Source: a virus (lineage: Duplodnaviria; Heunggongvirae; Uroviricota; Caudoviricetes). Taken from it: a stretch of 15,900 nt of DNA. The first letter of the stretch is position 1. The number at the start of each line of letters is the position of its first letter. Made by a program: the position numbers and the translations under genes. The notes under the pieces were generated by a model. It did no database searches. It was not told the DNA's origin and worked only from the letters and a program-made list of their open reading frames with translations. The stretch is taken from IMG/VR virus record IMGVR_UViG_2695420863_000009; one strand, 5' to 3'. Below are positions 7,378 through 9,148 of the stretch, in pieces.

Positions 7378-7590
7378 TTAATCGTTGTGATAACTCATAG
7401 CTTCATTTGCAGCATCAACTGGATCAACCTCCCTCCAGCAATAATTTGGGTCGGCTCCTTCAGGCGTCCACGGTTCTAATTCATTTTTTGCCGCATTCTC
7501 ATCGCCAGTAATTTTAAAAATCTGCTCAGAGAATTTTCTTGCCCACTCGTTATATTTTTCCGCATTAATGGCTTTCTGTGTATTTAACAT
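7378..7590 (-). CDS. hypothetical phage protein
   Basis: 70-aa ORF with SD ggagg before the ATG. A GC hairpin with GAAA loop (7355-7372) sits just downstream of the stop. Confidence 0.5.
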   Translation of the reverse strand: MLNTQKAINAEKYNEWARKFSEQIFKITGDENAAKNELEPWTPEGADPNYCWREVDPVDAANEAMSYHND

Positions 7591-7640
7591 AAATACACCT
7601 CCAGTTAAGGATTAGATTTTATTTACAGCGCTAAATTTAT

Positions 7641-7997
7641 TTATTCAGTTCTGGATTTTGTCACCCTGCGTATCCGCGCTTTCGCGTTACGCTCAATCTG
7701 AATTAACTTTTCTATATTTTTCCGCCTTTCCTGTTCCTCCTGGCGCAATAGCTTTACATCATCTGCCAGCCTAGTTTCTCTTTTCGCCACAGAGAGCATC
7801 CAGTCAAATGGCTCCACAACTGCACCGCAGATTTTACAGCGGACCTGACGCTCTTTTTCGTCAACCCGGACAGAGGCGTGATGACAATATGGTCTTTCCG
7901 ATGGCTCATAAAGAAAATTAACCTGATTACGAGGGTCATCCTCTTTTACCGGAAATAAAACGATATTGCTTAACTCATCCTCTGGTTTTATTTCCAT
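7641..7997 (-). CDS. hypothetical protein with putative zinc ribbon and basic coiled-coil tail
   Basis: 118 aa with SD aggag; YCHH…CKICG cysteine/histidine cluster; Arg/Lys/Glu-rich C-terminus. Overlaps the upstream gene by 23 nt. Confidence 0.5.
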   Translation of the reverse strand: MEIKPEDELSNIVLFPVKEDDPRNQVNFLYEPSERPYCHHASVRVDEKERQVRCKICGAVVEPFDWMLSVAKRETRLADDVKLLRQEEQERRKNIEKLIQIERNAKARIRRVTKSRTE

Positions 7998-8436
7998 GCT
8001 CCTCTCCTTTGATGCGAATGCCAGCGACGCGTAATGCGTGTTCTAGGTCAATCAGGTAAAGCCAACTGCCATTTTCTTTAGGTATCATGACATGTCGCTC
8101 ATCTGCATTTATCGGGTGTCCATATCGAAGGTCGTAGCGAGTCGGTAATTGAACTTCCCGCGTATCCAGTTCAGCAATACGCTTGCTCCCATCAGAGATA
8201 ACGCCTTCGTAATACTCACGCTGCTCGTTGAGTTGTGATTTTGCTTCTTCCAGTCCATCCAGCAAACCAGCGATAATATCCGCTTCCCGATGACGGATAT
8301 GACGCTTAAACGCAGCAAGAGCCGCATCACAATCCCGTTCAGCATTTGGGCTGTCCGGGGTAGCCTGATACCACGCCAGCGTCGACTGATAGTTTTGTGC
8401 TGCCTCACGAAGCGCCTCATAGTTAACCTCTCTCAT
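7975..8436 (-). CDS. hypothetical phage protein
   Basis: 153 aa with SD aggagg; ATGA overlap with the upstream DUF4406 gene. Confidence 0.5.
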   Translation of the reverse strand: MREVNYEALREAAQNYQSTLAWYQATPDSPNAERDCDAALAAFKRHIRHREADIIAGLLDGLEEAKSQLNEQREYYEGVISDGSKRIAELDTREVQLPTRYDLRYGHPINADERHVMIPKENGSWLYLIDLEHALRVAGIRIKGEEHGNKTRG

Positions 8437-8729
8437 TGAGCCACCTCCTGATAAATCACCGCATGCCCCAGTTTCTCCGCCAGTGCCAGCTCTGCCTTAG
8501 CGCCCGCTGACCGCTGCCAGCCATTCAGCATGTAAATCGCATCCACACAACGAATCATTGCCATGCAAATATCCATGTAGTGCGGCTGTGTCAGCCCGTC
8601 CGGAAGTACTGCCGGGTTTAAGACGGTATGCCCTTCCCGTTTCAGTTCCTCTTCCACCTTGTGAAATGCCTCACGGTTGAAATTTTCATATCCCGTCATT
8701 GGACCGGCAATATAAACTCTCACCCTCAC
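8433..8729 (-). CDS. DUF4406 (nucleoside 2-deoxyribosyltransferase-like) protein
   Basis: 98 aa with the pattern YIAGPMTG…FN…F…VLNP…GWQRS.GAKAE…A, typical of the DUF4406 fold. ATGA overlaps on both sides. Confidence 0.65.
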   Translation of the reverse strand: MRVRVYIAGPMTGYENFNREAFHKVEEELKREGHTVLNPAVLPDGLTQPHYMDICMAMIRCVDAIYMLNGWQRSAGAKAELALAEKLGHAVIYQEVAQ

Positions 8730-9148
8730 TCCATCACCTCCTGAAAGTTTCCCCGATAGAACGCCAGCACACGCTGCATAACTTCGCTCCTCCTGCTCTC
8801 ACGACAAATTATGTTCTGGTGCCTGTCGTAGCGGCGTATTTCGCCGTCTGGTAACGACCAGATAAGGTCCGGATCAACCACTGCAGGTTTCTTCAGCTTT
8901 GCCCTTGAGAGCTTTTTACGGGTATTTTGCCAGTCCTTACGCGCCTGTTCAGACGGGAATAACCCGTAACCAGAGTTGTATACATCGCCACTGGCAACCA
9001 GCTCTCTGGCCAGAACGCTCATCAGATATCTTGTTGCCCCAGTTTTAGCTTCCAGTTGTCGTAACGTCTCGCGCCCACTCTGGCGTACGAGTTCAAGAGC
9101 CTGCCCTTTAATTTTTTCCCGCTCTTCTTGTGTAAAAACTTTTGCCAC
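8726..9148 (-). CDS. hypothetical phage protein
   Basis: 140 aa; GTG start at 9148 preceded by aggagg (5 nt). Occupies the position directly after the replication initiator but has no ATPase or helicase-loader motifs. Confidence 0.5.
   Translation of the reverse strand: MAKVFTQEEREKIKGQALELVRQSGRETLRQLEAKTGATRYLMSVLARELVASGDVYNSGYGLFPSEQARKDWQNTRKKLSRAKLKKPAVVDPDLIWSLPDGEIRRYDRHQNIICRESRRSEVMQRVLAFYRGNFQEVME

Follow-up and report, generated by a model that had tools for sequence, protein, structure and literature searches.

Five short genes on the minus strand of an Escherichia coli lambdoid prophage (positions 7378 to 9148 of the 15,900-nucleotide [nt] stretch of IMG/VR virus record IMGVR_UViG_2695420863_000009, hereafter the window) most probably make up an ordinary mosaic portion of the rightward delayed-early operon, equivalent to the ren-nin region of phage lambda. 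Gene-content comparisons indicate that they are not a fixed functional unit; they are best described as separate cassettes that assort independently. In minus-strand order, the genes are g1 (DUF977/LygF, 140 amino acids [aa]; 8726-9148), g2 (DUF4406, 98 aa; 8433-8729), g3 (Ead/Ea22-like, 153 aa; 7975-8436), g4 (zinc ribbon plus helix, 118 aa; 7641-7997), and g5 (acidic, 70 aa; 7378-7590). A first-pass annotation, made from the letters of the window, had placed five minus-strand genes here; the coordinates of its open reading frames (ORFs) are exact, and RefSeq gives the same five. Where it saw no recognizable family beyond DUF4406 and a Cys/His cluster, families can be named: g1 belongs to DUF977/phrog_142, g3 is Ead/Ea22-like, g4 belongs to phrog_1621, and g5 belongs to phrog_4659.

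Prevalence was counted per gene in 5,426 complete E. coli genomes, and gene order was read from IMG/VR loci (the 80 best matches per query gene, with counts skewed to close relatives). The whole block was present in 155 genomes (99 to 100% identity) and the single genes in 619 to 3,936 (g1, 3,936; g2, 1,200; g3, 840 at full length and 2,223 in part; g4, 1,679; g5, 619), 4 to 25 times the prevalence of the block. No phage record held 80% of it. Among the 80 loci selected with g4, the window order was found in 14 and g1 lay directly upstream of g4 in 38; g5 followed g4 in 27 of 75. Loci selected with g5 had g4 upstream in 47, g1 directly upstream of g5 in about 20, and the series g1-g2-g5 in 3, and the order g2-g3-g4 was kept in 42 of 71 loci selected with g2. 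The gene-content comparison called for in the first-pass annotation thus returned sub-combinations (g1-g4, g1-g5, g1-g2-g5, and the C-terminal part of g3 with g4 and g5) rather than five genes traveling together. Absence from close relatives, named there as a finding that would count against the proposal, was found for g2, g3, g4, and g5, on presence and absence only.

The same genes turn up in other settings. The Shiga toxin (Stx)-converting phage ArgO145 has the C-terminal part of g3 with g4 and g5 in its leftward early operon, where a different Ea22-like gene precedes them. The next gene after g4 is Q-like in Kluyvera, Erwinia, Pantoea, and Photorhabdus, where g4 itself comes after NinG, RusA, or HNH genes. 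Loci without g2 and g3 keep the last roughly 40 nt of g3 before g4 as a shared junction, and cassettes would recombine at short shared junction sequences of this kind. Three Enterobacter prophage loci have O-P (or DnaB), then a small protein (with a weak helix-turn-helix match in one), then DUF4406, joined by 4-nt overlaps; the gene after DUF4406 is Ead/Ea22-like in two loci (one with only a faint Pfam match) and DUF551 in the third, and two then continue with NinB through Q. These loci show that what is conserved is a slot beside the replication module and not a gene set.

At the junctions, g1 and g2 share GTGA (8726-8729), g2 and g3 share ATGA (8433-8436), and the ATG of g4 lies 23 nt inside g3 (overlap, 7975-7997). 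Between g4 and g5 there is no overlap; a 50-nt AT-rich spacer (7591-7640, minus strand) carries a GGAGG (7598-7602) belonging to g5, 7 nt upstream of its start. Shine-Dalgarno sequences of the AGGAGG or GGAGG type precede all five starts by 4 to 7 nt. The overlap chain comprises four genes (g1 to g4), not five, and g5 is not translationally linked. The first-pass statement that all five genes are joined by ATGA or longer overlaps is therefore right for g1 to g4 (GTGA, ATGA, and 23 nt) and wrong for g5 (50-nt spacer); the co-translated five-gene unit built on it is not supported, given that the genes assort independently among related prophages and that g5 has its own ribosome-binding site. Overlaps are the normal packing of this region and no mark of a special unit, because 9 of the 10 lambda P-to-Q junctions overlap, by 4 to 34 nt.

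The window is a Rac/Qin-like E. coli lambdoid prophage; in its rightward early operon, the block comes after an O-like replication gene and before Q. Identical DNA (100%) is found in E. coli ML35, where the prophage adjoins potC. Upstream of the block, the ORF list with Pfam, PHROG, and RefSeq assignments gives, all on the minus strand, a P22-Cro-like gene (cro, 10753-10968), a YdaT/cII-like gene (10331-10756), and the 358-aa O-like gene (9189-10265); after g5 follow a broken DUF4014 gene, a phrog_1714 gene, DUF551, hokD/sok, DUF968, RusA, and Q. From this order, transcription of the five genes would come from read-through that starts at the promoter on the cro side and first passes cro and the cII/YdaT-like and O-like genes, and the start/stop overlaps would allow translational coupling from g1 to g4. 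Gene order and the lambda comparison bear out the first-pass placement: the block occupies the variable slot for accessory genes that lambdoid phages have between their replication genes and Q. Like lambda ren-nin (ren and ninB to ninI), the block runs from the replication genes to Q on one strand as short overlapping genes with mosaic, dispensable content, and phrog_142 takes in both its g1 and lambda Ren. Unlike lambda ren-nin, it contains none of ninB to ninI, having instead DUF977, DUF4406, Ea22-like, zinc-ribbon, and 70-aa proteins, and its g3 C-terminal part, g4, and g5 also occur in the leftward operon of an Stx phage.

All five genes are under purifying selection against natural variants, with ratios of nonsynonymous to synonymous polymorphism (pN/pS) of 0.17 for g1, 0.14 for g2, 0.29 for g3, 0.05 to 0.08 for g4, and 0.22 to 0.24 for g5, and are therefore real genes. 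Within 7378 to 9148, Rfam gave no RNA families and the ORF list gave only short plus-strand ORFs without support. The five proteins had no NCBIfam matches, and PDB sequence searches with g1 to g4 and the DUF4406 profile gave no meaningful match.

The first gene, g1, starts with GTG 40 nt past the stop of the O-like replication gene, with AGGAGG 4 nt upstream. It is a full-length DUF977 protein (PF06163, 100.1 bits against a cutoff of 22.1; residues 1 to 136 on profile positions 1 to 134 of 134) and matches phrog_142, "Ren-like exclusion protein" (E value, 1.6e-44). Residues 1 to 81 also match phrog_2391, "DNA binding protein" (E value, 5.5e-5); the protein is basic (isoelectric point [pI], 9.8), with an N-terminal half of DNA-binding type by this match. 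In lambda, ren confers escape from Rex exclusion. Direct BLASTP of g1 against lambda Ren aligned 20 C-terminal residues only (E value, 4e-5; ICRESRRSEVMQRVLAFY / VFKECRQSAAMKRVLAVY), so the kinship is distant, and tblastn with g1 at an E value of 1e-3 did not reach lambda. The two share a PHROG family, a position directly after the replication module, and the C-terminal motif; they differ in length (96 aa for Ren, 140 aa for g1), and lambda Ren has no match to Pfam DUF977. We would place g1 as a Ren-family winged-helix protein that trails the replication module, whatever its type.

The first-pass annotation had named a DUF4406 protein, correctly, and had given it a fold related to nucleoside 2-deoxyribosyltransferases (NDTs), which structure prediction and Foldseek now back. 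The GTG-initiated g2 matches PF14359 at 128 bits (cutoff, 22; residues 4 to 93 on profile positions 2 to 91 of 91) and phrog_355, and occurs widely among temperate phages of Enterobacterales and Vibrio, with 571 homologues in prophages of these groups. Its AlphaFold model (mean predicted local distance difference test [pLDDT] score, 91.3) matched NDTs, MilB, BcmB, and human DNPH1 with a Foldseek probability of 1.0 and template modeling (TM) scores of 0.68 to 0.79 (0.75 to 0.78 for the best); MilB and BcmB, which are cytidine monophosphate (CMP) N-glycosidases, rank among its top PDB matches. On the predicted structure, g2 is confidently a minimal NDT/DNPH1 fold. It scores 15.2 bits against PF05014, the family of NDTs proper, under the cutoff of 28.8, and is therefore not to be filed as an NDT proper. 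Seven residues are invariant among 39 homologues (Y6, A8, G9, D53, S74, G76, and E80). DNPH1 uses Y24, D80, and E104, and its S98 binds the 5'-phosphate (PMC10603095); the spacing from Ser to Glu is 6 in both proteins (S74/E80 and S98/E104), and NDT mutants in PDB titles (Y7F/A9S, D62N, and E88Q) parallel Y6/A8, D53, and E80 of g2. With the 2'-deoxynucleoside 5'-phosphate N-hydrolase DNPH1/Rcl and with NDTs (PF05014; PDB entries 8qhr, 8pqr, and 2a0k), g2 has in common the flavodoxin-like fold; going by motif spacing, it would also share the Tyr that ends strand 1, an Asp, and, within a Ser/Asp-x-Gly-x-x-x-Glu motif, a Glu as putative nucleophile. It is much shorter (98 aa against 130 to 160 aa in the solved enzymes), at 16 to 26% identity. 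On the same grounds, g2 would be a catalytically active member of the NDT/DNPH1 superfamily, a retaining N-glycosidase with Glu80 as nucleophile together with Tyr6 and Asp53, acting on the nucleotide pool during phage replication. Its substrate is probably a (deoxy)nucleoside 5'-monophosphate, because Ser74 sits where DNPH1 binds the 5'-phosphate.

The third gene, g3 (start, ATG), is Ead/Ea22-like over its N-terminal residues 3 to 66 only (PF13935, 43.5 bits against 27; phrog_250), with an N-terminal coiled-coil part followed by a different C-terminal part. The latter had no PDB sequence match, so g3 lacks the solved C-terminal domain of lambda Ea22. RefSeq names the protein after the MucB/RseB domain (22.5 bits against a cutoff of 22.3, over 51 of 178 profile positions), and some RefSeq records call the same protein ead/Ea22-like; we regard the RseB name as a marginal Pfam match. 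Near 8170-8250, the gene itself contains a mosaic breakpoint: homology to Stx2a phages spans 7350-8169/8250 only, and GC content within g3 falls from about 0.51 to about 0.40 where the Stx-phage homology starts. Because the homology edge and the GC step coincide inside the gene, g3 is a recombinant of two lineages. Ea22 has been described as pro-lysogenic and as tetrameric (PMC7093339 and PMC10834534). In its modular layout of N terminus, coil, and C-terminal domain, g3 resembles lambda Ea22 and P22 Ead (PF13935), matching their N-terminal and coiled-coil part; it differs from lambda Ea22 in an unrelated C-terminal part and in lying in the rightward operon and not the exo-xis region. By this layout, g3 would be an Ea22-type oligomerizing early protein.

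The Cys/His cluster with a basic coiled-coil tail seen in the first pass holds up in g4 (phrog_1621; E value, 1.4e-55). Its putative metal ligands, C38-x-H40 and C54-x-x-C57, are all invariant among 35 close homologues; the 48 distant members keep C38, C54, and C57 without exception and H40 in at least 90%. The model has strands at 43 to 46 and 51 to 54 and a 55-residue basic helix (residues 63 to 117; pLDDT, >90), which ends in the near-invariant NIEKLIQIERNAKARIRR (helix consensus in the 35 homologues, LRxEExxRRxNIEKLIQIERNAKARIRR). Residues 36 to 62 form a small beta-hairpin ribbon with four predicted metal ligands, as in TFIIB-type zinc ribbons (PF08271), which g4 weakly resembles (Pfam E value, 1.7e-4; Foldseek probability, 0.93, and E value, 0.19); structural searches gave no informative neighbor. 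A profile search grouped the family into 1,639 clusters at 50% identity, and no Pfam family covers them; distant members lie in arrays of tiny early genes, on metagenomic contigs with the look of phage genomes. Five proteins (P0124, P0128, P0390, P0393, and P0394) are in-frame fusions of an Ea22-like N terminus and coil with g4, joined at ...AELEARE|IKPEDE..., and one (P0388) fuses DUF977 with g4 through loss of a single stop codon where g1 and g4 are adjacent and in the same frame. The in-frame Ea22 fusions suggest that g4 is one interchangeable C-terminal module of the Ea22-like family, which is a lead and not a result. Because g4 replaces the Ea22 C-terminal domain in other genomes, it may act in the same functional sphere as Ea22; as a zinc-ribbon/coiled-coil module, it would use its invariant basic C-terminal helix to bind a conserved partner. 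Two other explanations were discarded. A TraR/DksA-like RNA polymerase binder is contradicted by the reversed domain order (ribbon and then single helix) and by the lack of a Pfam match, and a programmed frameshift fusing g3 and g4 across the 23-nt overlap is contradicted by the Ea22-g4 fusions, which are recombinants because they join at the boundary of coil and C-terminal domain and lack the g3 C-terminal part.

The last gene, g5, belongs to phrog_4659 (E value, 3.4e-50) and encodes a protein with a pI of 4.5. Its matches came solely from phages and prophages of E. coli, and its eight phage records are all Escherichia or Stx2a phages. Its product would be a small acidic protein translated from its own ribosome-binding site. 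Directly after its stop, a G+C-rich hairpin (7352-7368, minus strand; GCCGCCC-GAAA-GGGCGGU) has a folding energy of -19.7 kcal/mol (z score, -3.5; none of 200 shuffles as stable) and goes with g5 into Stx phages; homology to Stx2a phages begins at position 7350 of the window. The terminator scan made no call at 7352-7368, and a canonical intrinsic terminator was rejected, there being no U-tract. Just downstream of the block lies the DUF4014 gene (7128-7345, minus strand), a pseudogene by its stop codons and frameshifted in ML35 according to RefSeq; its AGGAGG site is upstream of the hairpin, which stands between this site and the DUF4014 ATG.

A reading of the block as a single functional system of five co-translated genes, such as a defense or anti-defense operon with jointly acting products, could draw on the three consecutive start/stop overlaps from g1 to g4, on the location in a cargo hotspot, and on the recurrence of the window-type order in 155 genomes, 14 of 80 g4-selected loci, and, for g2-g3-g4, 42 of 71 g2-selected loci. 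We consider it highly improbable, and the assortment data have already largely refuted it: almost every sub-combination occurs (including g3C-g4-g5 without g1 or g2 and g4 alone upstream of Q), single genes are 4 to 25 times as prevalent as the block, g5 does not overlap its neighbor, and overlaps are the norm in the lambda nin region. PADLOC found no family at an E value of ≤0.01 for the five block proteins or three neighbors, literature on 2-deoxyribosyltransferases with prophage or anti-defense offered nothing functional, and the annotated part of this prophage (RefSeq, ML35) holds no rexAB; the defense or anti-defense cargo proposed in the first pass thus found no direct evidence, and the distant relationship of g1 to lambda Ren is the only hint in that direction. 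Several points nevertheless weigh against independent cassettes and against the functions assigned to them. The locus counts favor close relatives, as said above. Some pairs recur, g1 standing immediately before g2 in 64 of 78 g2-selected loci and g1 or g3 often preceding g4, and pairwise functional links may exist. The residue equivalences of g2 with DNPH1 and NDTs come from motif spacing and predicted secondary structure and not from superposition, and g2 lacks the C-terminal extension of DNPH1 with the second phosphate-binding serine (S128'), which completes the neighboring active site. In the literature searched, there were no functional papers on DUF4406, DUF977/LygF, or the g4 and g5 families.

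One such pairwise link would have g4 working with its upstream neighbor (g1 or an Ea22-like gene), the zinc ribbon and helix being an effector domain, free or fused, and the g3/g4 or g1/g4 coupling being functional. The 38 of 78 loci with g1 immediately upstream of g4, the 23-nt g3/g4 overlap kept in ArgO145 behind a different Ea22-like gene, and the in-frame fusions to Ea22-like N termini (five proteins) and to DUF977 (P0388) speak for it. Fusions are few, however, and that with DUF977 arose from one stop-codon loss and could be a pseudogene-like accident; in other genera, g4 is the last gene before Q and follows NinG, RusA, or HNH genes, and there DUF977 was not detected and Ead/Ea22-like genes were not searched by profile. 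On balance, such a partnership is possible, if on the doubtful side. For g2, the alternative to a housekeeping enzyme of the nucleotide pool is a counter-defense enzyme; it would destroy either an immune signal derived from a nucleotide or a toxic nucleotide made by a defense system. The retaining N-glycosidase fold with conserved putative catalytic residues would suit it, as would the wide spread of g2 in temperate phages of Enterobacterales and Vibrio, and the weaker structural neighbors of g2 include TIR and SPARTA TIR domains and a ThsB chain (9b7d, ThsB-Tad3 complex). This role appears distinctly unlikely, since the literature searched holds no link between DUF4406 and defense, PADLOC gave no match to g2, a role in DNA or nucleotide metabolism suits its fixed place beside the replication module, seen in several genera, and the invariant Ser74, by analogy with DNPH1, points to simple 5'-monophosphate substrates.

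Elsewhere in the window, no P/DnaC/DnaB-type helicase-loader gene lies between the O-like gene (9189-10265) and g1, where Rac-SA53 has ydaV and ydaW. The 358-aa O-like protein looks composite: it matches "replication initiation" PHROGs along the whole sequence and, from residue 130 to 358, a DnaD-like loader PHROG, and its last 24 residues resemble the DnaT C terminus. A hokD-type type I toxin gene and a sok antisense RNA (Rfam, 117 bits) lie in the same early operon region (5362-5574 and 5512-5686, minus strand). An island of low GC content (0.35 to 0.43; about 815-3500, minus strand) adjoins Q (3120-3500) on the side away from the block and looks like foreign cargo, with genes for a CPBP-family intramembrane protease (2150-2974) and a helix-turn-helix protein (815-1528). 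Beyond these genes, at the low-coordinate end of the window, are three tRNA genes (537-786, minus strand; Arg-tct, Arg-tcg, and a CAT-anticodon tRNA, Ile according to RefSeq) and an STnc100 small RNA match (138 bits; 270-460, minus strand). On the leftward side of the prophage, three DicF small RNAs (Rfam, about 77 bits each; 12851-12902, 14785-14836, and 15644-15695, plus strand) lie within a segmental triplication (12782-13032, 14716-14966, and 15575-15825); two copies of the 251-nt segment are 100% identical, and further flanking segments are duplicated too.

The block is ordinary, common, and already annotated in many E. coli genomes; as textbook lambdoid mosaicism, it carries little weight in itself. 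Its value is as a pointer to DUF4406 and the zinc-ribbon/helix family, two groups of phage early proteins that are very common and strongly conserved. That these two cassettes hide new biology is rather unlikely on present evidence. If they do, g4 would represent a CHCC zinc-ribbon/coiled-coil family without a Pfam entry (at least 1,639 clusters; pN/pS, about 0.05) that serves as an Ea22 effector module and possibly as a widespread host-targeting or lysis-lysogeny factor, acting through its invariant ERNAKARIRR helix, and DUF4406 would be a minimal N-glycosidase with which phages act on (deoxy)nucleotides, either to edit the nucleotide pool or to destroy a defense-related nucleotide. The predicted roles of Glu80 as nucleophile and Ser74 as phosphate contact in DUF4406, and the link between g4 and Ea22 through their fusions, are directly testable leads.

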